From a virus: a stretch of 64,000 nucleotides of DNA. The notes below the pieces were generated by a model that saw nothing but the letters and a program-made list of their open reading frames with translations, was not told the origin of the DNA and ran no database searches. The DNA lies in the IMG/VR virus record IMGVR_UViG_3300036719_006047, positions 64,001 through 128,000 of that record; one strand, given 5' to 3'. Made by a program: the position numbers and the translations under genes. Below are positions 3,849-63,918 of the stretch, piece after piece; position 1 is the stretch's first letter, and the number at the start of each line of letters is the position of its first letter.

Positions 3849-3922
3849 GGGGCGGTAGCTCAGTCGGTCAGAGCACCCGGCTCATACCCGGTATGTCGTG
3901 GGTTCGAGCCCCACCCGCCCTA
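3849..3922 (+). tRNA. tRNA-Met(CAU), elongator type (Ile2 not excluded)
   Basis: CCGG-CTCATAC-CCGG; paired 1-72 position argues against initiator. Confidence 0.85.
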
Positions 3923-3928
3923 CAGTTT

Positions 3929-13933: not shown

Positions 13934-14728
13934 ATGGCGTACAAGAAATCTGGTCCTCCTGAGTGGGTTCTTGCGGCTCGCCCCCTTCTCGGGACGATGC
14001 GGGACCCCGAGCTCGCCCGAATGCTCGGCGTCAACAAGGGCACGCTTCGCGCCCTCCGTCTGCGCGAAGGCATTGCGATGAGTCCGGACATTCCGAGAAT
14101 CAAGCGAAGGAAGCCTGATGCCGAGGCTATGGCTTACGCAGACGAGAAGCATCCCGGAATCCTGGAGAAAGTAGGTCTTTTGTCGGACACTGACATCGCA
14201 AAGGAATACGGAATCTCGAGAGCACGGGTCCGAAACATCAGAAACCGGACCAACAAGAAGTCACCGGCCTCAAACGTCTTTTTCCCGAATCGCTTGGATC
14301 TGCCCCAAAGCGAAGTCGACAGGATCGGCAAAGAGCCTGACGCGAAGCTGGCGAAAGAGTGGGGCGTCTCCGCTTCTTCCGTCTGCAGATGGAGAAAACT
14401 CAACAGAATTGAGACCTTCGAGAACAACGATGCGTGGCTGAAGATTGCAGCAGCCCACGATCGCGTGGGGCAGGTGTCTGATCTCAAGCTGTCGTTGGAG
14501 TTGCAGGTTTCGCCACACACTATCATGAAGTACCGCAAAAAGCACAACATCAAGCCTGTGCGTGCTTCGCCTGCTTCAGAACACTTCGTGATTGTCGATA
14601 AGGACGAACTGAAGAGGCTGATCGACGAAGGAAAGAGTATCAAAGAGATCGCAACGCACTTCAACAGAAGCCCCGCTTGCATTCACGCCCACAAGAAGAG
14701 CTTGGGCCTTACCCGGAAAAAACCATGA
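13934..14728 (+). CDS. Protein with five tandem HTH-like repeats
   Basis: Repeats of hG..sD..hA..hGhS...V...R; GAGGT RBS. Confidence 0.8.
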   Translation: MAYKKSGPPEWVLAARPLLGTMRDPELARMLGVNKGTLRALRLREGIAMSPDIPRIKRRKPDAEAMAYADEKHPGILEKVGLLSDTDIAKEYGISRARVRNIRNRTNKKSPASNVFFPNRLDLPQSEVDRIGKEPDAKLAKEWGVSASSVCRWRKLNRIETFENNDAWLKIAAAHDRVGQVSDLKLSLELQVSPHTIMKYRKKHNIKPVRASPASEHFVIVDKDELKRLIDEGKSIKEIATHFNRSPACIHAHKKSLGLTRKKP

Positions 14729-20324: not shown

Positions 20325-21617
20325 ATGACCCTGCGTCGTTACCTTGATGGTCGCATCACCCTCAACACCCTCAACTACCAGCCCTGGGAGCTGGAGCCCG
20401 GTCAGGTCTACACCTTCGAGAAGGACATGCAAGTCGGCTTGCACCTCGTCAAGAGCAAGGAGGGCTTGACCTTGCCCCCCAAGCTTTACGGCAACGTCGA
20501 AGCGCGCAGCCAGCGCGTGCTCAAGACGTTCGGCCTCCTGGGGCGCCTCGGTGTCGCGCTCTACGGGCTCAAGGGAAGCGGGAAGTCGCTGCTCGCGGCG
20601 CACATCCTCAAGTCGAGCAACCTGCCGATCATCAGCATGAACAAGCCGTTCTCGCCGTCCGAGTTCGGACCGTTCCTCGATTACGTCGGCCCGCACGCCG
20701 TGTTCTTCGATGAGTTCGGCAAGATATACAATGATGCGGACCTGCAAGCTCAGCTCTTGCCGTTCTTCGACTCCGCCCATGCGGCCAAGCGCCTGGTCGT
20801 GGTCACGGACAACACGGATCACGCGGTCTCGGATGCCAACCGCAACCGACCCGGTCGGTTCCACTACCTGTGGCGCTTCTCGGGACTCGAAGAGGCGTTC
20901 GTTCGGGACTACATCAACGACCACTTGACGGCGCCTGCCGAGTACCGCGAAGCCGTGCTGCAGCGGGCCGAAGACATGAGGTCTGAGCTGTCCTTCGACA
21001 TCCTGCGGGCCCTGGTGTGGGAGTGCAACAACTACCACACGGAGCTTTCGCCGGCTGACGTGCTGGCCCCGCTCAACGCCGAGGTCAAGCCGGTCTCGTA
21101 CGGCTGGTCAGTAAGCTTTGAGTGGAGTGAGCCCTTCGCTGCTGTCGGCTTTCTCTGCAACGCGTCGAAGTACGCCGAAAACGTGGAGGAGATCATCGAG
21201 TCGGCCGGCTTGTACTCGGTCACTGTCCTCGTCAAGCGCGAGCATCCCAAGAAGCCGTTTAACGCAGAAAGCGGAGAGGACGAGGATGAGGACATCGACG
21301 AGGACTACTCCAACAGCATGACGGACGAAGAGTTCGCTCAGACCAACTACTGGGATTCGACCAAGTTCCAGCGGTACAGCACCTCGTTCAACTTCCCGTC
21401 CTCGTTCTTGGTTCAGGAGACTGCCAAGAAGCTCCAGTACCGTTTCCCCATCGTGGTCAACGGTCGCCTGGATTTCGCGCTTCTGCGTGACCTCAACCTC
21501 TTCTCCTACCTCTCTGCGTCGCATCTGGTCAAGGAGTTCAGGAAGCACCAGAACTTGGAGCTGAGCCTCTTCCTCGAGCGGAAGAATCGCGAAGTCTTCC
21601 GGTCGTGGGCCATGTGA
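20325..21617 (+). CDS. AAA ATPase
   Basis: GLKGSGKS, VFFDEFGK, RNRPGRFHY. Confidence 0.88.
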   Translation: MTLRRYLDGRITLNTLNYQPWELEPGQVYTFEKDMQVGLHLVKSKEGLTLPPKLYGNVEARSQRVLKTFGLLGRLGVALYGLKGSGKSLLAAHILKSSNLPIISMNKPFSPSEFGPFLDYVGPHAVFFDEFGKIYNDADLQAQLLPFFDSAHAAKRLVVVTDNTDHAVSDANRNRPGRFHYLWRFSGLEEAFVRDYINDHLTAPAEYREAVLQRAEDMRSELSFDILRALVWECNNYHTELSPADVLAPLNAEVKPVSYGWSVSFEWSEPFAAVGFLCNASKYAENVEEIIESAGLYSVTVLVKREHPKKPFNAESGEDEDEDIDEDYSNSMTDEEFAQTNYWDSTKFQRYSTSFNFPSSFLVQETAKKLQYRFPIVVNGRLDFALLRDLNLFSYLSASHLVKEFRKHQNLELSLFLERKNREVFRSWAM

Positions 21618-29292: not shown

Positions 29293-29979
29293 ATGCACTT
29301 TTCAAGCGCTGTTCAGTTGTGGGAGAGTGCTCGGCAGGGTCTTGTCCTTCCCGTCGAGACGATCCAGCAGTATGTGAGTGGCCTGGCTGCGCGTGCTGGC
29401 GGTGTTCATCGCGAGTGTTGGACTCGCTACCTGAAGCTGGCTCGCGCGCTCGATGTGCCGTGGGCAGTTCGTTTGCGGACTGCTCTCGATCGCCGGCTCC
29501 CCTGTCCCGGGGCTTGGTGCGGCCGCCATGAGTTTTACGAGTCGTGGCGTAGCCAGATGGTTGGCTGGTACGAGATGTTCTTGCTCGGCCCCATGAACAT
29601 CAACAGCGACACCGCTCCTCCTGCAGTGCGAGAAGGTCTTGTCGTGTTCCGCGACAACGTCCTTTCTTGTGCTCAGTTCGACGGTTCTTTGCTGTTGGTG
29701 TTCATCGAGAACGTCGACAAGGACAACGCCCGAATCACAAGCATCTTCGACATCTCGTTCGACGACACCATCACTGTTGCGTTCGGCAACAACACGGAGA
29801 TGACAAAGTTCGAGGACACGCCTGAGCCCGTGCCTGTTGTCCGTGCCCACTTCAAGCTCAAGGACTTCCCCGATATCCTTTGGGGCCAGGCGTACGAGAG
29901 TGACAAACCTGTGCGTGATGACAGTGCGCAAGCACGCGAACTGATCGAGAAACTTGCCCCCAACACCCTGTCCAAGTGA
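29293..29979 (+). CDS. Hypothetical protein
   Basis: 228 aa. Confidence 0.7.
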   Translation: MHFSSAVQLWESARQGLVLPVETIQQYVSGLAARAGGVHRECWTRYLKLARALDVPWAVRLRTALDRRLPCPGAWCGRHEFYESWRSQMVGWYEMFLLGPMNINSDTAPPAVREGLVVFRDNVLSCAQFDGSLLLVFIENVDKDNARITSIFDISFDDTITVAFGNNTEMTKFEDTPEPVPVVRAHFKLKDFPDILWGQAYESDKPVRDDSAQARELIEKLAPNTLSK

Positions 29980-29990
29980 GGAACATCAAC

Positions 29991-32411
29991 ATGACCACCA
30001 TCAAGTCCCTGACTGAGATCCGCTACACCAAGATCGACCTGTCCGACTTCGGCATCAAGCCCGCAGAGGTGCTGACCCCTGCGCACCACATCGTCGTCGT
30101 GGACCGCTCCGGTTCCATGTACTCCGACATCACTCACGCGCGCGACATGCTCATCCAGACCTTCGCCACCGCCACGGTGCTGAAGCCGCACGTCAAGGTG
30201 AGCTTGCTGTCCTTCTCCTCGGAAGGTGATCTGACGTCGCACTTCGAGAAGGTGCCGGCGACCGACGTCTCGGATCCCAAGTACGTCAGCGCGATCAAGA
30301 GCATTCACGCAACCGCGTTGACGTGCATCTCGCAAGGCATGCTCGCCGCGCTCAAGCTCGTGACGCCGGCAGAGCCGACGGCCATCACCTTGTTGACCGA
30401 CGGCTACGCCAACGACCGCTCGCCGTCCACCGAGATCGCGAAGCTCAACGCCTTCGTCGAGGAGGCCCGCATCATCCCCGGCTTGTTCGTCAACTGCATC
30501 GGCTTCCGCAGCTGGTGCGATTGGAACCTGATGCAGAAGATCGCATCGAACTTGGGCGGCAAGTGCGGCGAGGCAAAGACCTTCCTGGACGTGCACAAGG
30601 TGCTGTTCGAGGTCAACACAGCGCTGTCCGGCAACGTCTCGCCCATCATCAGCATCGGGCAGCCGGACGCGGAAGGTACGCTCCTCGCGGTCTGCCTCAA
30701 GCCCGAGAAGGTGGTCATGGCCAAGAAGGGCAAAGAGCTGATCTTGCCTTTCTTCGACACGAGCCTTGGCGACATCGATAAGATCATTCAGGTGTTCAAC
30801 ATCACCCCGAAAGGCGCTGAGAGCTACAAGAAGGCGGCGAAGTTTACGAACACCCTCAAGGCGGACAACGCGGAAGAAGCTTTCCGGGTTCTCGCGGCCT
30901 ACGCTTCCGCCCTCGTCGGTTCGCGTGAGCTGCGTCTGGCCAAGGAGTTGCTGTTCCTGAGCGGCAACAAGTCGCTTTACGAGGAGTACTGCACCGCCAT
31001 CACGCCGCTCGACCTCGTCGGAATGCAGATGGCGCTCGAGGAGTGGGCCTACATCGGCAGCACCCACTACACGATGGGCAAGAACATGAAGCCCAAGCTC
31101 ACGTTGTCGGATCTCGAAAAGCTGCTGTCAGCGACGACACCGCATCTGGGTTTCGACTTCGAGATCGATACCGACAAGTTCTGGGAGGTGTACACCCGGC
31201 GCAGCACCTCCCGGGTCGAGGGCACCGTCAACGAGCACGGAGAGCACATCCCGTTGCAGTTTGAGCTGTACGCGACCAACGCGCCTCAGATTCGCGGCTT
31301 GTCGATCAACACGAGCGAGGCGACCATTCAGGTGGAGACGGTGTCGCCTGCACTGGTGCGGGACAAGACCAACGGTCAGACGCTGATGAACTGCGAAGGC
31401 GTCAGCCTCATGAACCTCAAGAGCTACCGCAGCTTCACCCTCATGAGCAGCGGTGCTTGGAACATCCGCTACCTTCCCGTCAAGCCGGTCAACCGTGCCG
31501 GCGCCGAGAAGCTGTGCAGCATGTTCCCTGACGCCAACCGCAAGAGCGTCGATGTCGGTGACAGCTACCTGATCGACCTCAAGAAGTTCAACGCGGTCAA
31601 TCCCGAGGCGACTGCGACCTGGGCTGCGGTGCAGGCCGCAGCTTCCTCGATGGCAGTTTACACGGCCAACATCAAGTTCTACAGCGCGATGCTCAGCAAG
31701 GCCGATGCGTCTCCCTTCTCGGAGAAGCAGGTCAGTGAGCTGAAGCGCTTCTACTTGACGCCGGCCTTGTACTGGTCGCCGCCCACCGTCGAGAAGTACA
31801 AGATCAAGGATGCCGACGGCGGGGTCGGTCTCGATCACGCCATCAAGACGGGCAAGGTCGACATGTACACCCGGTTCTCGGTGTCGTTCGGCACGAACAA
31901 GATCCTCACCAAGGACGAGTTCCCGAGCGCCAACGAGTTCCTGGCCAAGTTCTACTTCGTCACCGAGGCCGGAGGCGCCAAGATCGCCAAGCCCAAGGTG
32001 CAAGACCTCCTGCAAGGAGGGAAGTTCGAGCTCAAGCCCTTCGCAGAGAACCGCATGAGCCATGCGCACAAGCTGATGAAGGCCGTTCTCGAGAACATCG
32101 ACTTCGGCAAGATCAAGCAGTCCGAGATCGCCACGAAGCTCAAGGGGTTCGAGGCCGACCGGGAACGGGCCTACAGCGAGCTTCAAGGCATCACGCTCTA
32201 CATCGGCTGCCTCGGCATGCTGCCCGAAGAGCTGGAAGCCGAAGGCGTCGTCGCTCTCACTGGAGAGGAGCTGGAGCAGAAGACGGGCGGGAAGCTCTCG
32301 AAAGATGAGCGGAACGGGATGTTCTTCATGCTCAGCAACGGACACGAACAGGACGGGGGAGAGTACGGGATCATCGGAGTCACCCCCAGCAACGCGTACT
32401 TCTCCCGATAG
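29991..32411 (+). CDS. Large vWA-domain protein
   Basis: MIDAS VVDRSGSM, LTCIS, LLTDG; GAGG RBS; very high GC3. Confidence 0.88.
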   Translation: MTTIKSLTEIRYTKIDLSDFGIKPAEVLTPAHHIVVVDRSGSMYSDITHARDMLIQTFATATVLKPHVKVSLLSFSSEGDLTSHFEKVPATDVSDPKYVSAIKSIHATALTCISQGMLAALKLVTPAEPTAITLLTDGYANDRSPSTEIAKLNAFVEEARIIPGLFVNCIGFRSWCDWNLMQKIASNLGGKCGEAKTFLDVHKVLFEVNTALSGNVSPIISIGQPDAEGTLLAVCLKPEKVVMAKKGKELILPFFDTSLGDIDKIIQVFNITPKGAESYKKAAKFTNTLKADNAEEAFRVLAAYASALVGSRELRLAKELLFLSGNKSLYEEYCTAITPLDLVGMQMALEEWAYIGSTHYTMGKNMKPKLTLSDLEKLLSATTPHLGFDFEIDTDKFWEVYTRRSTSRVEGTVNEHGEHIPLQFELYATNAPQIRGLSINTSEATIQVETVSPALVRDKTNGQTLMNCEGVSLMNLKSYRSFTLMSSGAWNIRYLPVKPVNRAGAEKLCSMFPDANRKSVDVGDSYLIDLKKFNAVNPEATATWAAVQAAASSMAVYTANIKFYSAMLSKADASPFSEKQVSELKRFYLTPALYWSPPTVEKYKIKDADGGVGLDHAIKTGKVDMYTRFSVSFGTNKILTKDEFPSANEFLAKFYFVTEAGGAKIAKPKVQDLLQGGKFELKPFAENRMSHAHKLMKAVLENIDFGKIKQSEIATKLKGFEADRERAYSELQGITLYIGCLGMLPEELEAEGVVALTGEELEQKTGGKLSKDERNGMFFMLSNGHEQDGGEYGIIGVTPSNAYFSR

Positions 32412-32572
32412 GCGTAAGTGTTAATCGATATTGGTTAACACCTACCAAAATAGTACAACTACGTAGTCAACTTTGCTCCGAAAAGTGACTTAGCGGGCGG
32501 GCTACGACGTGCATCAGCGGCACGTCGTAGCTAAACCGCGAACGTCAGATTTTTAGAAAAGTTGCGATAACG

Positions 32573-32578
32573 TATAAT
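32573..32578 (+). promoter_or_regulatory. Consensus -10 box in the left inverted-repeat arm
   Basis: TATAAT; no canonical -35. Confidence 0.5.
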
Positions 32579-32960
32579 AGGATAAACAAACACAGTTATC
32601 GCGTGCACATCGGTCAGAGAAACAAGGACCTCAGACACCCCACACGGGCCCTCGAACCACCAAACAGGACCCTCCTTCCCCTTGACGGACCTTGACTCTC
32701 TCACTACGACAGAACTCGCAGGAACCTCTCCCGACAGACTCCCTTCACCAGGGCTATCTCGACGGAATTCAAGCTCTTTGACACTCCAAAACCTGCACCA
32801 GCAGCCCCATCATGCATGAGTATAAGACGAATGCAGGGTGGGGCGCTTTTGTTTTCACAAACGAATATGAAAGTCGTTTTCAGTTGCTTCTTGAATTACT
32901 GTTGGAGGGATACTGATTTCTCTGACCGACGTGCACGCGATAACTGTGTTCTGTTAATCG

Positions 32961-32966
32961 ATTATA
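32961..32966 (-). promoter_or_regulatory. Consensus -10 box in the right arm, facing the left one
   Basis: ATTATA on + strand, inside palindrome GTTAAT-N9-ATTAAC. Confidence 0.45.
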
Positions 32967-33198
32967 CATTAACGGGACTGAGAGCAGCCGTTTATCGGGA
33001 CTGCGAAGAGAGCTGTGTCGCCGAAGTTGTCGGCAGCGAGCACAACGCAGAGAAGAGCTGTCGCTGGGAAGGAAATAACGAGATGGGCGGGAAACGCACT
33101 TTTCGAGGCCAATTTTCGTAAGTGTTAATGGCTATATGGGTATTACTTACCCGAGTAGGTCGTGTGCCACACGATAGCTCTCACGAAGAGGAGGGTGT

Positions 33199-33630
33199 AT
33201 GTACTTCAACTACAACGTGGCTCCGGGAAGAATAACGATCGTGAAATGGTCGAGTGAATACTTGATCGGCTTCTCGGTTGTGTTCGCGCCGAACGAGAAC
33301 AACGAGATCGTGTCGGACAAGGTCATCATTCAGGCAAAGCAAGAGTTGTACGGTTGGTGCGTGAATGGCTCGATGGTAAGCTACTGTGGGCTACACAATG
33401 TCACCAACCCGATAATGCTGGATGGGATGAACGCCCTGTCTCTGCCCAAAATCAAGAAACTCCAAAAGTTGTTTGAGCCCTCATTCCAAGGAGAGCGCTT
33501 CGTATTCATCGCGGAGTGCGGATTGCACAGCGAGCCAGAGTTGTTGTTCCAGTGTGAGATGAAGCCTCTCGTAATACAGAGGGGCATGTACAACGTAGAA
33601 AGACCAGTGACTCCATTCAAGCCGAAGTGA
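33199..33630 (+). CDS. Hypothetical protein
   Basis: GGAGG RBS, 143 aa. Confidence 0.75.
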   Translation: MYFNYNVAPGRITIVKWSSEYLIGFSVVFAPNENNEIVSDKVIIQAKQELYGWCVNGSMVSYCGLHNVTNPIMLDGMNALSLPKIKKLQKLFEPSFQGERFVFIAECGLHSEPELLFQCEMKPLVIQRGMYNVERPVTPFKPK

Positions 33631-33639
33631 GGGAATGCG

Positions 33640-37329: not shown

Positions 37330-38267
37330 AGAAAACTAACCCACAATCAGCAGAGCACAAAGGCCACACAGCTTTCGTCTGGAAGAACAACTCCAACCTG
37401 TACGGGCCCGACTTGGCGCGGTTCGTGTTAGGCGTCATGTCTGTGTCGAATGAGCGCAAGTGCAGAGAGAGCGAAGAGGACAAGGAAGTTCACTTGATCT
37501 TGTTGTCCTCGAAGAGGCTAAACAAGGTTCAAACCGTTGGCAGTTACAGCCCTCTGCTGACGAAAAAGATGGTCGCAAGCTGCCCCAACATGCTGTACAT
37601 GCTTGAGGGGGCGGGTCAGTTGCACTTCAATCACAGGATCTTCCACGTTCCCGACAGGTACTCAGAAGAATCGCACTCACAGAAAATCACGAGAAGGATG
37701 AGCAAAGAAGGCAAGTTAGACCTCTTCAGCCTCAACGGAGAGGAAATCGTCGACATAGCCATAGCGGTATTGAAGTACAGTTGGAACAGCTTGCCGTATG
37801 AAGGCACAAAAGAATTTTGCGATACTCTTGGCGTAGCGGCAGACGTGATGGCTCGCCTTCTGAACATCTCATGCCTCGAAACGTACTTTTACGACAGAGA
37901 GGTAGTTGAGTTCAGGCAGAATCTGGGAGACAAACTCCTCGCAGAGTTCAATGTCACGCGCATCGAAGACATCAACCTCCGCTTCAGGTACCGCAAGTTC
38001 AGCTTCCACACTTGCAGAGACAGGGAAAGAATCAAGGAAGAGAACCAAGTACTGCTCAAAGACTGGCAAAATTTGAAGCAGAGTGCGAAGTACATCAAAA
38101 TCTGCATCGAAAGGAAGCTCAGCGCTTTTGCAGGAGCGGCTGCGATCGAGGAATTTGAAGCGTCAAAGCCATTGCTACAAGAAGCTTTGCTCAATCTCCA
38201 CAAGGCTATGCAGGCCTACGAACTCACCAACAACAAACTCCGGGATGCCTACGATGCGACTCTCTGA
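37326..38267 (+). CDS. W[RK]N-motif paralog 5
   Basis: FVWKNNSNLYGPDLA; FRYRKFSFHTCRDRERI. Confidence 0.8.
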   Translation: MKKTNPQSAEHKGHTAFVWKNNSNLYGPDLARFVLGVMSVSNERKCRESEEDKEVHLILLSSKRLNKVQTVGSYSPLLTKKMVASCPNMLYMLEGAGQLHFNHRIFHVPDRYSEESHSQKITRRMSKEGKLDLFSLNGEEIVDIAIAVLKYSWNSLPYEGTKEFCDTLGVAADVMARLLNISCLETYFYDREVVEFRQNLGDKLLAEFNVTRIEDINLRFRYRKFSFHTCRDRERIKEENQVLLKDWQNLKQSAKYIKICIERKLSAFAGAAAIEEFEASKPLLQEALLNLHKAMQAYELTNNKLRDAYDATL

Positions 38268-39369
38268 TCTGGCTGATGTCATCTTCTCCACTTGGAAGCA
38301 CAACCCCACTCAGTCCATCTTCGTCATGGGGCCGCCCGGCATCGGCAAGACCTCTGTCGCGGCCGCCGTTGTGGATCGCATCCGAAAGTACAACACAGAC
38401 AACAACGTCCAGGGCCCCGTCGTCTGCCACATCAAGGACCTGTCGTCTTCGTTGCCCGAAGACCTCAACGGTCTGCCGAAAACGGACGGCGAGGTGATGC
38501 GCTTCGTTCCCGACACCTGGCTCGCCGAGTGCTGCAACCCTGAAGCCTCCGGCATCCTCATCCTCGACGACCTGCCGGCAGCGACTGCTTCCATTCAGGT
38601 GGCAGCGCGTCAGCTCGTTCTCGACAAGCGCATCCACGAGCACAGGCTGTCCAGCAAAGTCATCGTTGTCGTAACTGGCAATCGTCGTGAGGACGCTTCT
38701 GCGGCCAAGACACTCCCCGCTCACTTCCGCAACTCCGTGTTGACGCTCGAAGCTGAGGCGAACTTGGCGGACTGGACTTCGTGGATGCGCTCCAAGGACG
38801 CAGACCGCTCCGTGACGGACTTCCTGGCCTTCCGGCCGCAGCACTTCTCTCGGCTGCCCGTCAATGCCGACCAGCGCGGGGTGTTCGCAACGCCTCGTAC
38901 CTGGAAGATGCTGTCCGACCTGATGCCGGTCGCTCTCGAGACCAAGAAGCTGTTCGAGATCAGCGCCGGTCTCGTTGGCGAGGGTGTGAGCGCGGAGTTC
39001 GTGGCCTTCAAGGACATGAGTGATGCGCTGCCTGACCCCAAAGCCGTGCTCGAAGACCCCTACAAGCACTACCCCAGCAACCACGACATCTGGTCCAACC
39101 GCCCCGACTTGATGGTTGCCGTGCTGTCGGGCATCTCGTACTACGCAGGCAAGGCCAAGAAGACAAAAGACTTTGTTCCTGTCGACGCTTACGTGAAGGC
39201 TGTTGCCTACTTGTGTTCCCGGTCCACCGAGTACTTCGAGTTCGCTTTCCAGGCTTTCCGCGACAGTGGCGGTCGCGAAATGGCTTTCTTGACGGCCGCG
39301 CAGCAGCTGTCGACGACTGACTCGCGTGTGGCCCAGCTCAAGGCCAAGCTCCGTGAGGTGTTCGCGTGA
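38254..39369 (+). CDS. MoxR-like AAA+ ATPase, copy A
   Basis: GPPGIGKT, PEDLNGLP, LILDDL, TGNR, FATPRTW. Confidence 0.9.
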   Translation: MRLSDLADVIFSTWKHNPTQSIFVMGPPGIGKTSVAAAVVDRIRKYNTDNNVQGPVVCHIKDLSSSLPEDLNGLPKTDGEVMRFVPDTWLAECCNPEASGILILDDLPAATASIQVAARQLVLDKRIHEHRLSSKVIVVVTGNRREDASAAKTLPAHFRNSVLTLEAEANLADWTSWMRSKDADRSVTDFLAFRPQHFSRLPVNADQRGVFATPRTWKMLSDLMPVALETKKLFEISAGLVGEGVSAEFVAFKDMSDALPDPKAVLEDPYKHYPSNHDIWSNRPDLMVAVLSGISYYAGKAKKTKDFVPVDAYVKAVAYLCSRSTEYFEFAFQAFRDSGGREMAFLTAAQQLSTTDSRVAQLKAKLREVFA

Positions 39370-40538
39370 CTAGCAGAGAAGAGACTTTCGCTCGTTTCTC
39401 GAAGGCGAGAACTTGGTTGATCGGCCGGATGCCTTTCTTCGGGCACCTGGCTCTCAACCTCAAGCTCGATCCTGTGGCCGGGGAAGATCAAGGAGTAGAA
39501 ACGGCTTGCATCTACCCGACGGGTGAACTCATCCTCAACGACAAGTTCGTCGCGTCGTTGACCGATGCTCACTTCAGGTTCGTTCTGGCCCACGAAGTGC
39601 TGCATCCAGCATTGTTGTGCCATGTGCGCCGCAAGGGCAGAGATCATCTCGTCTTCAACATGGCGCACGACTACGCCATCAACTTGATCATCACAGAGGC
39701 AGTCGAAACGGCAAAAGAGCACAACAACTGCTGTATGCCGCTCAAAGGGCTCATCGATAACGCTTACAAAGGCCTTTCCGCAGAAGAAATCTACGACAAG
39801 CTGTTGGAGAAAGCAAGCATCGCTTATTACGCAAAAGGAGGCTTCGATCAAGACGTCGCAGAGAAAGAAGCCAAGACTGAGGACAAGGAGCAAGACAGCA
39901 TCTGGAAAATGCGTCTCGCGGCTGCGAGCGTAGCGGCTTCTCGCTCGAAGAGAGGCAACATTCCTGCCGGGTTGCAGAAGATCATACAAGAGATTTTGCA
40001 GCCCCAGGTGTACTGGCTTGATGTTCTCGCGGAGTACGTGTCGGGTTGTTTGGGCGGAGACATTTTCACTTACAGCAGGCTGAACCGCCGGTCAGAGGGC
40101 GCAGGATGCATCCTGGCCGGAAAGATCAGCGATGAGATGCCCGAAGTGACAGTGTTGTGGGACACGAGCGGTTCGCAGCAGGGGTGGGAAGACACCGTTT
40201 TCGCGGAGCTGAAAAAGCTGCAAGATGACATGGCGGTGCCCTTCCGGCTCATGATCATCGATACCGTGTTGTACGCAGACATGATGGTAGACGACGTCGA
40301 CGATACTCTTTCACAGCTCAAAGGTGGCGGCGGCTCCGACTTCAAACCCGCTTTCGAGAAGCTCGAGCAAGAGAACAACCAGTCAGTCGTCATCGCATTC
40401 ACAGACGGCGCGATCGGTGTGCCAGAGACACCGCCACCGTTGCTCAAAGATGTCATCTGGGTGCTGACGGGACACTATTCGAGCCCCCCGGCACAGTACG
40501 GCCGCTCGATCTACATCGAGAAAGGAAAGTCGAAATGA
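39366..40538 (+). CDS. DUF2201-type metallopeptidase-vWA protein, copy A
   Basis: HEVLH (HExxH), N.AHDYAIN, WDTSGS, GGGGSDF, FTDG. Confidence 0.88.
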   Translation: MTSREETFARFSKARTWLIGRMPFFGHLALNLKLDPVAGEDQGVETACIYPTGELILNDKFVASLTDAHFRFVLAHEVLHPALLCHVRRKGRDHLVFNMAHDYAINLIITEAVETAKEHNNCCMPLKGLIDNAYKGLSAEEIYDKLLEKASIAYYAKGGFDQDVAEKEAKTEDKEQDSIWKMRLAAASVAASRSKRGNIPAGLQKIIQEILQPQVYWLDVLAEYVSGCLGGDIFTYSRLNRRSEGAGCILAGKISDEMPEVTVLWDTSGSQQGWEDTVFAELKKLQDDMAVPFRLMIIDTVLYADMMVDDVDDTLSQLKGGGGSDFKPAFEKLEQENNQSVVIAFTDGAIGVPETPPPLLKDVIWVLTGHYSSPPAQYGRSIYIEKGKSK

Positions 40539-41323
40539 AAGAAGGCGATGCCATCACGCACTTCGACAACTCTTTGCTAAACCCAGAACTGGAGGGAAAT
40601 CCGAAATACTGCTTCCGGATTCGAGTGATCGGCAACAACACAGAGCTGAGCACACAGCACGTAGAGAACACGGTCAACAACGCGCTGCGGCTTGCCTGCG
40701 AAGAAGACAAGCTGCCCGCTTCTGTGTCAGAGAAGCTTGAGCCGGTTTACACGCTGTTGGTGCTGAACCGGTTGAGACGAACAAGCAAGCGGGACTGGCA
40801 GTTGTCGCGGTTTGTTGAAAGCTGTCGCCTGTTCGCCAAGGTGAGCTCCATTTACGCCCTGAAACAGGTAAAGCCAAAAATGAGAGTGTCACCTGCTCTG
40901 TTTGTGTTGGACGTGTTTGACGCATCAAAGGTCTTCAGCGCGTCAGAGCTGATCGCTTTTTCTTCTCCCACAGGACTTGTTGTCCCCGGTAGTGAGATTG
41001 CAGGGCTTGCGTCATACGTGCTGCAGAGGCTCGAAAACCCCGACGATGTCAGATTTAAGCGGCGAGATGAGATACTGGTCCGAGTGTGCGCGGAAGCTCT
41101 GATTGCGACAAGGAAGCCGAAGCAAGAAGGTGTAACCGCCAAAGAAGCAGTAGCACTCGGCAAGAAAATCGCAGCGCACCGCACTCGGCGGCTGAAGATG
41201 GAAAGGCTGCAGAAGAACTTGAGAGAAGCACAAAGAACCCTAGCAAAGCTGTCCCGAGATAGCCGCAACGATCTCAAGCAAGACATGAAAGACTTCTACA
41301 CAAAGGGGACTCGCAAGAGATGA
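40535..41323 (+). CDS. Hypothetical protein with basic coiled-coil C-terminus
   Basis: ATGA overlap, 262 aa. Confidence 0.75.
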   Translation: MKEGDAITHFDNSLLNPELEGNPKYCFRIRVIGNNTELSTQHVENTVNNALRLACEEDKLPASVSEKLEPVYTLLVLNRLRRTSKRDWQLSRFVESCRLFAKVSSIYALKQVKPKMRVSPALFVLDVFDASKVFSASELIAFSSPTGLVVPGSEIAGLASYVLQRLENPDDVRFKRRDEILVRVCAEALIATRKPKQEGVTAKEAVALGKKIAAHRTRRLKMERLQKNLREAQRTLAKLSRDSRNDLKQDMKDFYTKGTRKR

Positions 41324-41904
41324 ACGACCGCACGTACCGCTTCCCTCTGAAAAAAGGCGCGAAGCTCAAGGAAGACAACGGCTACGCTCTGTTGGCGGGA
41401 TTGACCTCCATCGCTCCGTTCCTTCACGGCAGGGAGAGTGTCCAGATCGCACCTATCGCGGGATCTCGCGTCAGCAGCGGTGTTCTCGTGACTGACGCAC
41501 GAAGCAAACTGCAGGTGAGAGGCATCACCCGGGAAGAAGCTGAACTGCTCCAGAAAAAGACTTTTCACGTTTCGGGAGAGGAGGTTGAGACTGGCCTGTT
41601 CCAGGAGGTGAAGTTTGCGTTCTTCCCCTGCTTGGCTTCTCGCCTTGTGATCTTCCGAGATGTGTTCAGCAAAGAGCAGTTCATCGAGAAGGTCAAAGAA
41701 GTTGCAAGGTCAGGCGATGTGGAGCTGGGGCGCCGGAGAGTGTTGACTCTCAAGAACAACAGCATGATCGGCTTCAGCGTGGTTTTGAAAGGACTGAAAG
41801 AAGAAGATTCGATCCGACTTCAGGCGGAAGGGATGGGCAAGTTCACGTCGATGGGTTGCGGGGTGTTTCACCACTTCCGACCGAACAGCACTCAACTGCG
41901 ATAA
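41320..41904 (+). CDS. cas6: Solitary Cas6/Cmx6-like protein (type I-B/Myxan family)
   Basis: DNGYALL (family DHGYALY), LHG..., LASRLV, LGRRRVL.LK...IGFSV, LQAEGMGKFTSMGCGVF (GhGxxxxxGhG loop). Confidence 0.85.
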   Translation: MNDRTYRFPLKKGAKLKEDNGYALLAGLTSIAPFLHGRESVQIAPIAGSRVSSGVLVTDARSKLQVRGITREEAELLQKKTFHVSGEEVETGLFQEVKFAFFPCLASRLVIFRDVFSKEQFIEKVKEVARSGDVELGRRRVLTLKNNSMIGFSVVLKGLKEEDSIRLQAEGMGKFTSMGCGVFHHFRPNSTQLR

Positions 41905-57081: not shown

Positions 57082-57591
57082 ATGATCACAGTTCTAGGAG
57101 AACACACACTGAAACTGGACGGGCAAGACGTAGTGCTCGTCGAGCTGAAAGATGAGACGACGGGGGCAATCTCTTTCGTAACCAAGTATCCGGTGACGAG
57201 AGACTTGTTTCCTGCGATTGAACCAAGCGGGAAAGCCAGCGAAGCCCTGCAAATCGAGGAGAGGAACTTCAACTTAGGCACGACAGAAGCTGTGATCGAA
57301 GAGGTTGCGAAGCAAGATCCTATCCTTTCGCACTACCAGTACCCCGAGAGAACAGACCACCTGCTCCGAGCGGTAAGCGAAGACAGTGGTCTGAGAGCAT
57401 CTTTGCTCTCGAGCAGCTTGCTGAAAAAGATGTTTTTGACCGAGAGGATGTTCGGAAACGATCTTGTCTTGTCCCATGAAGTTGCGTTCAAAGAGAACAG
57501 ATTGCCATTCCGTCTGAGCCACGCAACACAGAGTGTTTGCGGAGTGCTCTTTATCCCCTGCAACATCCCTGTCCTAGTGAGGAAGTCATGA
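57082..57591 (+). CDS. Hypothetical protein
   Basis: 169 aa. Confidence 0.7.
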   Translation: MITVLGEHTLKLDGQDVVLVELKDETTGAISFVTKYPVTRDLFPAIEPSGKASEALQIEERNFNLGTTEAVIEEVAKQDPILSHYQYPERTDHLLRAVSEDSGLRASLLSSSLLKKMFLTERMFGNDLVLSHEVAFKENRLPFRLSHATQSVCGVLFIPCNIPVLVRKS

Positions 57592-58694
57592 AGTTCGCCC
57601 AAGCTGTCCGTCTCGTCTGCGCCAACCACAAGTCCAGCACGAAGCAGACGTTGTTTTTCCTCGGCCCGCCCGGCATCGGCAAGAGCAGCATCGCTTACGA
57701 GGCGAAGCGGGTGCTGAAAGAAACTGACTTGATCGACGTTGACGTGGTTGTTGTCGACCTCAGCAACGCTTTGCCCGAAGACCTCAACGGTCTGCCGAAG
57801 ACTGAAGGCGAGGTGATGCGCTTCATTCCAGACGAATGGCTGCACCGCCTTTGTCGGCCGGGGGCACAAGCTATTTTGGTGCTCGACGACCTCGCAGCGG
57901 CCTCGTCTGCCATTCAGGTGGCCACTCGTCAGCTTGCGCTCGATCGCAGGATTCACAATCACATCTTGTCTGATGGCGTAAGCATCATCGTCACGGGTAA
58001 CAGGTCAACAGACGGCGCGAAAGCCACACAGCTTCCGAGCCACTTCCGCAACTCAGTGCTTCTGATCTCGATCGATCCCGACTTTGATGCGTGGGTTTCG
58101 TGGTACAGGCACCAAGAGAACGTCGACCGCTCTATTGTCTCGTTCCTGTTATTCGCAAAGAAGTTCTTCAGCACTGTGCCGCAAGAAGCCGACAAGCTCG
58201 GAGCTTTCGCTACTCCCCGTTCGTGGTCGATGCTGGGTAGGTTGCTGCCACAAGTCGTGCCCTTGGGGGACGAAGACATTCTTCGCGAGACAGTCCACGG
58301 CCTCGTCGGCACAGGGCCGGGCGTAGAGTACTTGGCCTTCCGGTCCATGCAGAACGACACTGTCGACATCCAAGACTTCTTGCGAGACCCGAAAAGGACG
58401 CTGCCTGCTCCTTCCGACCTCGAGCGCTCCTACTTGATCGCGATCTGCTCGGCTGCCGTGACTCGCGTGGTCGAGGGCAAAGGGTCCGATGACTACGACA
58501 AGTTGGTCTACGCGATGGCGCACGTGGCGACCGACAAAAGAGACTTGTTTGCTTACGCCTTCCAGCTCGCTGAGTCGCTCGGAGGCAAGGAAGCTCGCCA
58601 GAGGTTCAGCTTTGCCGTGAGCCGGGTGGCGAAGCAAGACAAGTCGGTTCTCAGCTTGGTCAAGACCATCTCTGACTTGCTGGGTCAGTTCTGA
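57588..58694 (+). CDS. MoxR-like AAA+ ATPase, copy B
   Basis: GPPGIGKS, PEDLNGLPKTEGEVMRF, LVLDDL, TGNR, FATPRSW. Confidence 0.9.
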   Translation: MKFAQAVRLVCANHKSSTKQTLFFLGPPGIGKSSIAYEAKRVLKETDLIDVDVVVVDLSNALPEDLNGLPKTEGEVMRFIPDEWLHRLCRPGAQAILVLDDLAAASSAIQVATRQLALDRRIHNHILSDGVSIIVTGNRSTDGAKATQLPSHFRNSVLLISIDPDFDAWVSWYRHQENVDRSIVSFLLFAKKFFSTVPQEADKLGAFATPRSWSMLGRLLPQVVPLGDEDILRETVHGLVGTGPGVEYLAFRSMQNDTVDIQDFLRDPKRTLPAPSDLERSYLIAICSAAVTRVVEGKGSDDYDKLVYAMAHVATDKRDLFAYAFQLAESLGGKEARQRFSFAVSRVAKQDKSVLSLVKTISDLLGQF

Positions 58695-59950
58695 TGCAAG
58701 ACTTGAACAATAAGTGGGAAGCAGCTCTGCTTTCTCTGTCCTTCGCGTATCCCTTCTACGCGCACTTGCTCTACAAGGCGAAGCTGCAGTTTGTCGACAA
58801 CGACAAGTTGACTGCAAAGGTCAACCACAAGCTTGAGATCAAGATGGGAGCGAAGTTTGCGCGAAGCCTGTCGCAGACAGAGTTCTCGGGAGTTGTTCTT
58901 CACGAGGTATTGCACGTTGTGCTCGGATACCACGAACGGCTCAACACCAAAGACCATGTTTTGTTCAATATCGCTCACGACTACATCGTGAACGGCCTTG
59001 TGCAAGAAGCGCAGAAACACAAGTTCCGAGGGAATGACGTAGTCTGCTTGGCGGATGGATGTCTTCTCGAGCCGACGTGGTCGCACCTGGCTGCAGAAGA
59101 GATCTATGCTTTCTTGTCGGAGAGAGTCGAGAACAACGGAGGCAAAAGGAAGGTTAAGCTCAAATGCTACAACAAGACGAAGGGCAACTCGGAAGAAGTT
59201 GAAGTCGATCTCAACGAAAGCATGTACACGGACGTGGAAGAGTACGATCTACTGAGCGAATCTGAGATCAGGCAGCTGTCCTTGGAGATGGCGCAGCTAC
59301 TCAAAGAAGCAGAAATGCATCACAAGAGCAGCCGAGGAACTCTGCCCAGCGAGCTGCAGATCCGCATCGACGCTATTTGCACGCCGAAGATCCACTGGAA
59401 CTCCTTCATACGGAATCATGTGGGTAGTCGAATCGGTTCGCCCCATCCCACCTACATGCGCCGAAGCAGGAGGTCGGAAGCAGTAGGAGAGATACTTCCT
59501 GGATGGCGCAAAGATTCAGCCTCAAACATCATCTTGTTGTGGGACACCAGCGGGTCGATGTACGGGATGCACGAAGTTATTCTTTCTGAGTTTCGGTCTC
59601 TCGTGAGAGAGATGGGCTACTCGCTGCGCCTCATTCAGTGCGACGCGGCCGTGCAGTCAGACATGCTCCTCGAAGACGAGACTGTCATCGTCAAAGGCCA
59701 CGGCGGCTCCGATTTCCAGCCAGCGTTCAAGCTGCTGGAAGAGGAAAACGAGGATGTGTACGTCATCGCAATGACGGACGGGGAGATTGGGTACCCAGAA
59801 GACAAGCCAAGCTGCGTAAAGGACATTTTGTGGGTCTACACAAGGCTTTATTCCGGCTACCCGCCGCCTTACTTGTTCTCTTACGGAGACTGCATTCAGT
59901 TCGACGTCAAAGAAGGGACCGTCACTATCTTGCGTCGAGGTCACGCCTAA
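58694..59950 (+). CDS. DUF2201-type metallopeptidase-vWA protein, copy B
   Basis: HEVLH, NIAHDYIVN, WDTSGS, GHGGSDF, MTDG. Confidence 0.88.
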   Translation: MQDLNNKWEAALLSLSFAYPFYAHLLYKAKLQFVDNDKLTAKVNHKLEIKMGAKFARSLSQTEFSGVVLHEVLHVVLGYHERLNTKDHVLFNIAHDYIVNGLVQEAQKHKFRGNDVVCLADGCLLEPTWSHLAAEEIYAFLSERVENNGGKRKVKLKCYNKTKGNSEEVEVDLNESMYTDVEEYDLLSESEIRQLSLEMAQLLKEAEMHHKSSRGTLPSELQIRIDAICTPKIHWNSFIRNHVGSRIGSPHPTYMRRSRRSEAVGEILPGWRKDSASNIILLWDTSGSMYGMHEVILSEFRSLVREMGYSLRLIQCDAAVQSDMLLEDETVIVKGHGGSDFQPAFKLLEEENEDVYVIAMTDGEIGYPEDKPSCVKDILWVYTRLYSGYPPPYLFSYGDCIQFDVKEGTVTILRRGHA

Positions 59951-62366: not shown

Positions 62367-63548
62367 ATGTCAAAGCGGCTCAAGTCTCTCCGCGAGATCG
62401 TCAACAGCGTCAGTGAGCATGAGTACAGAACAGCAATCAACAACCCGCTCAAAGTCCTTTCCGACTGGGACAAGTTCAAAGTCGACAAGGGAGGTGGTCG
62501 CTTCTTGACGATGATCACGGACATCGACCCCCGCGATCGCGCAAGCAACAGCAAAATCGGAAAAAACAGAAACTCAGAGCACTTGATGATCCGCCAGACG
62601 CATCAGATGAGCATGGCGTTGGCGCAGGCGGACAGCAGCGGAGTGTTCGAGGCGTGTCACGGGTGTCGGACGAAGCAGTGCAGCTTGCTCTGCAACGCCC
62701 GCTCCGGTCACATGCGCATCGAGCACGGCACTGCTGAACGCGCGAAGAAGATTCGTTCAATGTACTGGGCCGAGAACCCCCAGTTCGCGGGCGCCCTTGC
62801 GGTCATCGAATCCCGCAAAGGTGCTTTGCTCGCTGGGTCTCTCGGCTTGATCCCCATCATTCGGTCGAACACTTGGTCGGACGTGCCTTGGTACTTGACG
62901 ACACTTGCTGGTCCTTGGATCCACGACTTCACGCAGGTCAACGCTGACTTCATCGGTCTCGCTGCCGAGTATCCGATGCTGAGCCACAGCAACTACACGA
63001 AGCACACCGCAAGCCGCAACCTCAAGACCGGAGAGAAGGAGCCCGACGAGGCTGCTCCGCCCAACTACTACATGACGCTCAGCATCAACGAGAACACGCC
63101 TGTCGCCCGTATTCGTGCGCGGATCGCGAGTGGCAGGACTGCGATTGCGGTTGTTTGGGCCACCCCGAGCACGCCGCTTCCGCAGGAGTGGACGATGGTC
63201 GATCGCTGGGGGAAGCGTGAAACCTTCCCCTGCTACAACGCCAATCTCGACGACGCCCGCATTCACGACGCTGAAGTGGGCCGTCACGGGGTCGGCTTGT
63301 TGACGAAAAAGACGGTCAACAACCTTCCCCTCTTCAAGGGGATGGCTGAGGTCTCGTCTTTCATCCGTCCGATTGATCCTGACGCGCCCGTGGGCTCGAA
63401 GTTCGGCATCCCCAAGGAGTACGCGAAGAGTGAACATATTCGTACTGGAACACTGCCCGAAGAAGTCAGCAAGCAGTCAGTGCAACCGTCACGTAGTGAA
63501 GATGTGCTTGGAGACAGCGCAGATTCTGAGCACTGCACTTTTCACTAA
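62367..63548 (+). CDS. Gp88-like phage protein
   Basis: C..C....C...C...SG, R.N..SD..W, NYTK, Y.MTLS..E, AVV, D.DD.R..D, GL..K. Confidence 0.65.
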   Translation: MSKRLKSLREIVNSVSEHEYRTAINNPLKVLSDWDKFKVDKGGGRFLTMITDIDPRDRASNSKIGKNRNSEHLMIRQTHQMSMALAQADSSGVFEACHGCRTKQCSLLCNARSGHMRIEHGTAERAKKIRSMYWAENPQFAGALAVIESRKGALLAGSLGLIPIIRSNTWSDVPWYLTTLAGPWIHDFTQVNADFIGLAAEYPMLSHSNYTKHTASRNLKTGEKEPDEAAPPNYYMTLSINENTPVARIRARIASGRTAIAVVWATPSTPLPQEWTMVDRWGKRETFPCYNANLDDARIHDAEVGRHGVGLLTKKTVNNLPLFKGMAEVSSFIRPIDPDAPVGSKFGIPKEYAKSEHIRTGTLPEEVSKQSVQPSRSEDVLGDSADSEHCTFH

Positions 63549-63918
63549 CGGAGTGGCCGGCGTTCCGTACAAGCCCACGCACAAAAAGCATCCTTGCTGT
63601 GTGTGGGCGGCTGAAACGAAAGACAACTTCGACTGGCTCGTGATTCACGGTATCGCTTTGTGCGACGAATACACCAGAAGGTTCGGCAAGGTACACGCTT
63701 CCAGAAAAGTGATTGAGTTCTGTGGCGCGCACTCCTATTTGATGCCGCCAGGACCGATCACGCCGTTTGCCCAGGCCATGCCTGATGTCTACAAAGATGC
63801 TTGTGCTGTCACTGCGTACCGCAACTACTACAAGGCGCAAAAAGCTTCCTTCGCTACTTGGGCCTCCAAGACTGGCGTGGAAGTTGAGCCACCAGAGTGG
63901 TTTCTGTCGGTGCTGTAG
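63430..63918 (+). CDS. Pyrimidine-dimer DNA glycosylase-like protein (DenV/endonuclease V family)
   Basis: MNIFVL, HVVKM.LE.AQ.LS, YKPTH..HPC..W, LC.EY..R.GK.H. Confidence 0.8.
   Translation: MNIFVLEHCPKKSASSQCNRHVVKMCLETAQILSTALFTNGVAGVPYKPTHKKHPCCVWAAETKDNFDWLVIHGIALCDEYTRRFGKVHASRKVIEFCGAHSYLMPPGPITPFAQAMPDVYKDACAVTAYRNYYKAQKASFATWASKTGVEVEPPEWFLSVL

Follow-up and report, generated by a model that had tools for sequence, protein, structure and literature searches.

A mirrored inverted repeat around a conserved non-coding core in an uncultured phage: a possible transcription-control locus

The window analysed here, a stretch of 64,000 nucleotides, comprises bases 64001-128000 of a 136,910-bp (136.9-kb) IMG/VR virus record that derives from an uncultured phage. 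The record is linear, with a completeness estimated at 85% (CheckV), and crude gene calls run leftward over the first 63 kb and rightward over the remainder. No nucleotide relatives of the phage were found in INPHARED by blastn or megablast. An inverted repeat described in an earlier note on this DNA is located in a 787-bp gene-free gap (32412-33198) between a gene for a von Willebrand factor A (VWA)-domain protein and a 143-aa open reading frame (ORF), VWA being the sole family match among the ORFs that neighbour the element. G+C content falls from ~0.61 to ~0.51 across the element, and a high-GC ORF considered for inference of the host matched only metagenome proteins. The phage carries several separate genes for AAA/MoxR-like ATPases and VWA or VWA-like (DUF2201) proteins (20325-21617, 29976-32411, 38083-40538 and 57537-59950, two of these sites being adjacent pairs), modules of which it has an unusual number. 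The locus is composed as follows, with conservation and alternative motifs referring to the related contig L005 described below.

29976-32411, + strand: VWA-domain gene, 811 aa, left neighbour of the gap
32413-32439, + strand: site P1, CGTAAGTGTTAAT followed by tandem GTTAAT-GATATT-GTTAAC (GWTAAY-like)
32446-32539, + strand: block A, close behind the stop codon of the VWA gene, 93% conserved, non-coding
32560-32588, + strand: left outer arm, GATAAC-TATAAT-GATAAA with a 7-9 bp period (GTTAAC-GTTAAT-GATAAA in L005)
32589-32622, + strand: left inner box, 34 nt, unstructured as RNA (no local fold, z +0.5 to +1.4)
32623-32799, + strand: C-rich, G-poor tract (40% C, 16% G), weakly structured
32800-32855, + strand: predicted intrinsic terminator, a 16-pair stem followed by GCTTTTGTTTT
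32856-32916, no strand assigned: AT-rich segment after the terminator, ~94% conserved over 32856-32905
32917-32950, - strand: right inner box, mirror copy of 32589-32622
32951-32979, - strand: right outer arm, GTTAAT-TATAAT-ATTAAC (GTTAAT-GTTAAT-GTTAAA in L005)
33117-33146, + strand: site P4, CGTAAGTGTTAAT with TATAT and GTATTA units; the start codon at 33199 is 53 nt downstream
33199-33630, + strand: ORF, 143 aa, right neighbour of the gap

A repeat search delimited two arms of 63 nt each (32560-32622 and 32917-32979) that are 83% complementary and lie 294 nt apart. Their inner 34 nt (32589-32622 and 32917-32950) match at 33 of 34 positions, A32609 opposite C32930 being the single mismatch, and the similarity extends outward to include a GTATAAT in each arm (32572-32578 on the + strand, 32961-32967 on the - strand), both inward-facing. 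The inverted repeat is thereby confirmed, and its position is the one first described. Exact inverted identity extends over 20 nt at most, whereas none of 300 dinucleotide shuffles of the 787-bp gap gave a run above 12 nt. When 32580-32960 was folded as RNA, the arms formed the closing stem on either strand, with -141.6 kcal/mol (z -10.5) for the + strand and -160.4 kcal/mol (z -7.9) for the - strand. No further copy of the arms is present in the genome, in which only the two arms of this locus match, and pattern searches of IMG/VR and GTDB did not recover the element. The covariance models of Rfam gave zero matches at the gathering score and only two chance-level matches at E<=5; no tRNA or tmRNA identity was found for the element.

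The VWA protein has a cluster at 100% identity and a single relative at 84%, all others showing at most 36%. Scanning metagenomes yielded two contigs: L004, which stops just within the left arm, and L005 (Ga0194116_10064999; 2,489 bp), which covers the entire gap; two of the contigs bear JGI metagenome identifiers. The conservation comparison is therefore one of two sequences, the window and L005. The parts, their order and their orientation are the same in both, the core measures 294 nt in both, and the alignment contains zero indels over the 787-bp gap, even where identity is down to 51%. Identities between the window and L005 are distributed along the locus as follows.

Block A, 32446-32534: 93% (93.3%)
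Inner arms: 79-82%
Left, C-rich part of the core: 81.5%
Right part of the core, 32791-32905: 94%
Spacer to the right of the element, 32980-33095: 51%
Next gene: ~70%

The presence of a diverged copy with the same layout in an independent contig shows that the element is no assembly artefact, and its better conservation relative to the surroundings places it under selection, with a stronger constraint than they have; on this comparison the element is taken to be functional in some way. From window position 33631 and L005 position 1410 onward the two phages are unrelated, so that homology on this side is limited to the gap and the first downstream ORF (~430 bp), which places the element at a mosaic (module-exchange) boundary. 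More distant loci gave no counterpart: nhmmer detected no related sequence in 24 IMG/VR loci whose VWA gene is 23-34% identical, and the two closest of them are without a comparable gap. A 21-nt inverted repeat downstream of the VWA homologue in three loci (L016, L017 and L020) is not equivalent, as it lies within coding sequence. Neither single-protein nor alignment-based locus searches recovered closer relatives in IMG/VR.

We rejected a protein-coding core. Scarcity of stop codons on the strand is all that keeps its reading frames open, start codons are absent, and the frames differ from L005 by more amino-acid than nucleotide change (amino-acid identity being below nucleotide identity), which together argue for a non-coding core. 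Taken alone, the core is also barely more structured than its shuffles (z -1.6 and -2.0). Its left part, 32623-32799, has the strongest C-over-G skew (+0.45) in the plus-transcribed half of the genome, and this C-richness is kept in L005 (39% C, 21% G). C-rich, weakly structured RNA is the make-up of a Rho-utilisation (rut) site, which the tract resembles on the + strand, an analogy of composition; the - strand transcript of the same tract would be a G-rich RNA. The core also contains five GGA motifs, one of which is lost in L005; a function as a CsrA sponge is conceivable on their account.

The C-rich tract is followed by the one strong hairpin of the core. The stem at 32800-32855 has a core of 14 positions, GCCCCATCATGCAT/ATGCAGGGTGGGGC, of which one is mismatched and one a wobble, and an AGC/GCU extension. 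On the + strand it folds at -27.3 kcal/mol (z -5.3), is followed by the U-tract GCUUUUGUUUU, and is 100% identical in L005, while the - strand of the region reaches -20.8 kcal/mol (z -1.5) and has no adjacent U-tract. These predictions identify 32800-32855 as an intrinsic (Rho-independent) terminator in the + direction only. Two internal hairpins had been proposed earlier: the one formed by GCCCCATC and GGGTGGGGC is present and 100% conserved in L005, and the one formed by AAACGA and TCGTTT loses two of its six pairs there. The position of the terminator between the arms means that transcription on the + strand would as a rule stop short of the right arm, and the 34-bp stem would form only in read-through RNA. 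The ~360-nt RNA closed by that stem, as the earlier note had envisaged it, thus holds as a predicted + strand fold in which the arms close, but would not be the usual transcript, the conserved terminator preceding the right arm. Beyond the terminator, the ~94% conservation of 32856-32905 suggests a leftward RNA or a role at the DNA level.

Upstream of the left arm, block A ends in a perfect 16-bp hairpin (32497-32539; -28.7 kcal/mol, z -5.3) and holds a 10-bp palindrome, ACTACGTAGT. Block A could terminate the upstream VWA operon, or else be a small RNA in its own right, of ~100 nt.

An inverted repeat around a non-coding core is also the outward look of several known elements, among them retrons, invertible segments and miniature inverted-repeat transposable elements (MITEs), all of which had been put forward for this locus. 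What the locus has in common with a retron msr-msd is a promoter-like box followed by a non-coding, RNA-like core that inverted repeats enclose. Either a retron-like ncRNA, with msr-msd between a1/a2 repeats, or an invertible switch driven by a recombinase would account for the inverted repeat around the non-coding core, and for nothing else. Profile searches of the whole 136.9-kb record (85% complete) gave zero matches to reverse transcriptase (PF00078) at E<=1, the controls being matched, and zero matches to serine and tyrosine recombinases (PF00239, PF00589), which were matched in the control genomes. The a1/a2-like inverted repeats are present, but at 34-63 nt they are far longer than typical a1/a2, and an msd-type long hairpin is absent (core z -1.6 and -2.0), the sole strong hairpin of the core having a U-tract and hence being a terminator. 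The core has, moreover, the same orientation in both independent assemblies. The locus is thus not a member of the retrons: its retron-like look, when tested, was unsupported, and that reading was rejected for want of a reverse transcriptase in the record; the invertible segment is disfavoured, there being no recombinases and one fixed orientation in the window and L005. We regard either as barely credible.

That the locus is the relic of a mobile element (MITE-like, its terminal inverted repeats being 60 bp long) or a recombination site, without present function, is a very improbable alternative in our estimation. Long terminal inverted repeats around a short non-coding core would be in keeping with it, as would the mosaic boundary at which the phages become unrelated ~430 bp into the downstream region. 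However, the element is single-copy in the genome and was not found in IMG/VR or GTDB by pattern search; no target-site duplication is visible, the flanks (TTAGAAA and GAGAGCA in the window, TTGAAAA and TCCGGAA in L005) having no shared direct repeat; the record has no transposase or recombinase; and the element is conserved well above the neighbouring spacer and free of indels. The MITE was accordingly disfavoured on copy number, flanks and conservation.

The outer arms had been interpreted as two inward-facing -10 boxes. The hexamers are indeed there, in the orientation described. TATAAT occurs 7 times in the 136.9-kb genome, 2 of these occurrences being in the arms, and is not rarer than expected from dinucleotide composition. 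As promoters, however, they are weak: both TATAAT boxes read GTTAAT in L005, inspection by eye revealed no usable -35 hexamer in either arm, and nowhere in the window do sigma-70-type sites exceed chance. In 4/4 arm copies three G(A/T)TAA(C/T)-like units stand in tandem, with the TATAAT or GTTAAT box in the middle, and the right outer arm, read on the + strand, contains the palindrome GTTAAT-N9-ATTAAC. Similar triplets recur at P1 and P4, which form a direct repeat (32413-32431 and 33117-33135); the core of P1 is conserved in L005, and the GTGTTAAT motifs of the two sites are spaced by 704 bp in both phages (32418 and 33122 in the window, 189 and 893 in L005). GTTAAY is enriched in the gap relative to local shuffles (P ~0.001), and the gap is the densest GWTAAY cluster of the genome, the runner-up being a divergent control region just left of the window, in which a further triplet lies immediately upstream of a gene start. 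GTTAAT-type motifs are nearly limited to these two loci, and a general class of phage promoter was rejected for this reason. As TATAAT is unconserved, canonical sigma-70 sites are at chance and the triplets are shared with P1, P4 and the divergent control region, we infer that the outer arms are recognition sites for a DNA-binding factor, either an operator or a non-canonical promoter, rather than proven -10 boxes.

The near-restriction of the motif to two loci is fitted by a nucleoprotein complex at least as well as by a promoter class. A site of assembly at the DNA level, be it a replication origin or a complex that synapses the two mirrored sites, would be consistent with the four quasi-symmetric triplet clusters and with their exact spacing (704 bp from P1 to P4 and a 294-bp core, without indels); the exact conservation of length, even in the weakly conserved spacer, hints at a constraint of DNA architecture that an RNA model does not need. 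As an origin, the locus would combine iteron-like GWTAAY triplets, the conserved AT-rich segment (32856-32905) and R-loop priming by a leftward RNA as in ColE1 or T4 oriF, the extreme strand asymmetry making the - strand RNA G-rich. Yet cumulative GC skew is featureless here, no initiator gene was recognised adjoining the element, a more typical origin-like structure is present at the strand-switch point of the genome, and conservation of the whole core, including the terminator, is unexpected for a mere spacer between binding sites. A DNA-level site is on balance unlikely, and of the proposal of a replication origin the rigid geometry is what stands, the GC-skew check having shown no feature and the strand-switch region offering a better candidate. 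At genome positions 63,430-63,730 (L033:830-1130), ~270-570 bp left of the window start and at the divergence of leftward and rightward genes, ~300 bp are occupied by tandem 11-12-nt units (CGTGTCGCACGT, CGTGTCGTGCGT and variants), flanked by GATAAC/GTTAAC-type motifs and an A7T4 run. This array is a more conventional candidate for an origin or master control region than is the inverted repeat.

The inner boxes behave differently from what a structural stem would lead one to expect. Their 3' 21 nt (CGTGCAC-R-TCGGT-Y-AGAGAAA) are common to 4/4 arm copies in both phages, whereas the 5' part has drifted in L005, the inner arms of which match each other at 28/34 positions; sequence is thus kept more faithfully than long-range pairing. 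The arms of the window are near-identical mutually, yet show 5-8 changes from their L005 counterparts, and being closer to each other than to those counterparts indicates that they were recently homogenised, as far as two sequences can tell. With the box unstructured, its sequence kept in 4/4 copies and its pairing loose, the pattern is better matched by a sequence-specific box present in two copies than by a structural stem. By exact matching, the conserved 21-mer occurs in no IMG/VR contig and has one chance match among 185,579 GTDB species genomes. An 11-nt identity (GTCGGTCAGAG) between the conserved box of the right arm and the D-arm region (3863-3873) of a tRNA-Met gene (3849-3923) is probably due to chance (blastn-short E ~21).

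RNase III cuts the stems that flank rRNAs and the processing sites of T7 and lambda. At this locus, an RNA crossing both arms, either + mRNA that has read through or a leftward RNA that spans the right and then the left arm, could form a panhandle with up to 34 bp of dsRNA, and RNase III cleavage would separate upstream from downstream mRNA or free an RNA of ~300-360 nt. The fold is indeed governed by the arms whichever strand is taken (z -10.5 and -7.9); between the phages, one pair of the arms has changed on both sides, from G-C to C-G, the other differences being partly G-U compatible, and each arm is followed by U-rich sequence on the transcribed strand. The 23-34 bp of long-range complementarity around an RNA of a few hundred nt likewise recalls the RNase III stems of rRNA operon flanks and T7 early mRNA sites. 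Unlike in those, a strong, fully conserved + terminator lies between the arms and hence within the loop, the length of the stem is unconserved (with 28/34 matches in L005, the continuous stem shrinks to ~23 bp), and no conserved internal-loop features were identified. The arm mismatch, in addition, is a G-U on one strand in one phage and on the other strand in the other, which leaves neither strand consistently favoured, and the core alone is barely above shuffles in structure. Covariation between two sequences separates neither the strands nor function at the RNA level from function at the DNA level. We consider a processing stem improbable.

The 34-nt boxes were also compared with repeat-like RNAs, because the phage encodes an orphan Cas6: the ORF at 41320-41904 (+ strand, 194 aa) scores 103.6 bits as type I-MYXAN Cas6/Cmx6, above the NCBIfam cut-off of 98.85, and has no homologue in INPHARED phages. 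RNA anti-CRISPRs are solitary repeat-like RNA units made just downstream of a promoter (PMC10651486), and the boxes could be promoter-proximal solitary RNA units of this kind, either bound or cut by the phage Cas6/Cmx6 or acting as decoys of host Cas proteins. The above-cut-off Cas6/Cmx6 in a phage without a CRISPR array is compatible with this, as are the 34-nt length of the box and its place right after promoter-like sequence, which fit solitary repeat units, with no adjacent cas genes (PMC10651486); TATAAT lies 10 nt upstream of the box in the window, but the hexamer is GTTAAT in L005 and there is no -35 hexamer. In contrast to those RNA anti-CRISPRs (PMC10651486), no similarity to CRISPR repeats was found, the box is without a repeat-like hairpin, and its copies are inverted around a conserved core. 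A mimic of CRISPR repeats was not supported by exact matching: the 21-mer is absent from IMG/VR contigs and has only the chance GTDB match, the boxes are unlike the type I-MYXAN repeats of two cyanobacterial plasmids (Gloeothece and Nostoc) except for a shared CTGACC, and the 137-kb record contains neither a CRISPR-like array nor a canonical I-MYXAN repeat. The Cas6 gene is, furthermore, 8 kb away in another operon. We therefore think it very unlikely that the boxes are such units; that they are substrates or partners of the orphan Cas6, in an array-less RNA-processing or anti-CRISPR decoy module with twin convergent transcripts carrying the same 5' tag, seems equally far-fetched.

The reading that we favour, and advance tentatively from the sequence comparison, is that two mirrored promoter/operator boxes produce a terminated leader or small RNA of ~270 nt and its antisense partner. 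The locus looks like a lineage-specific non-coding control locus of the phage, at the boundary between two gene modules. A sense/antisense pair was among the first alternatives raised for this DNA and remains the most plausible of them, with the weakness of the promoters as its qualification. The two boxes of ~60 bp face each other over 294 bp, each consisting of three GWTAAY units and then the 34-nt unstructured sequence, and the triplets would be operator or promoter sites recognised by a DNA-binding factor of the phage or its host. Transcription in the rightward direction, whether begun at the left box or passing it, would halt at 32855, yielding a non-coding leader or small RNA of ~270 nt that would be comparable to the lambda pR'-tR' 6S leader, and the C-rich tract may contribute Rho-dependent termination. 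From the right box, a leftward RNA would start with the same first 34 nt as the rightward RNA, span the conserved 32856-32905 and, lacking a good terminator in that direction, continue into a G-rich antisense of the rightward RNA. The convergent units might thereby set the level of transcription crossing from the VWA operon into the downstream operon, and both RNAs may act in trans via their common 5' sequence.

Parallels to such an arrangement exist in part. The late leader of lambda comprises the pR' promoter, the ~190-nt 6S RNA and the tR' terminator. Our locus is similar in being a short non-coding unit with a strong intrinsic terminator just upstream of an operon of the same orientation, where read-through would be the regulated step. 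As opposed to lambda, no gene for a Q-like antiterminator could be recognised upstream, and a canonical sigma-70 promoter is missing; lambda, in turn, is without a second, mirrored promoter-proximal copy and without a C-rich tract. The likeness is one of functional analogy only. ColE1 RNA I/RNA II, P22 sar and coliphage 186 pR/pL share with the locus two inward starts a few hundred bp apart and complementary RNAs, which are putative here, and primer formation in ColE1 also involves a G-rich RNA over a C-rich template. In those systems the promoters and 5' ends are unrelated in sequence, whereas here both units would open with the same ~60-bp box, and no replication or immunity gene is attached.

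If the proposed arrangement is correct, the locus would be a phage regulatory hub of unusual build, in which a single promoter/operator-plus-leader box serves in two head-to-head copies with a terminator between them, and in which two convergent RNAs share their first 34 nt. It would also provide a defined non-coding control element for an uncultured phage lineage whose genes are almost all unannotated, and the GWTAAY triplets at three control regions would offer a handle for finding the regulator. A 264-aa protein encoded at 13934-14728 (+ strand) has at least 4 separate helix-turn-helix motifs (HTH_23, HTH_17, HTH_7, HTH_38 and others), along with additional weak small-terminase-like matches, and is a candidate for binding short DNA units in tandem, the GWTAAY triplets being an example.
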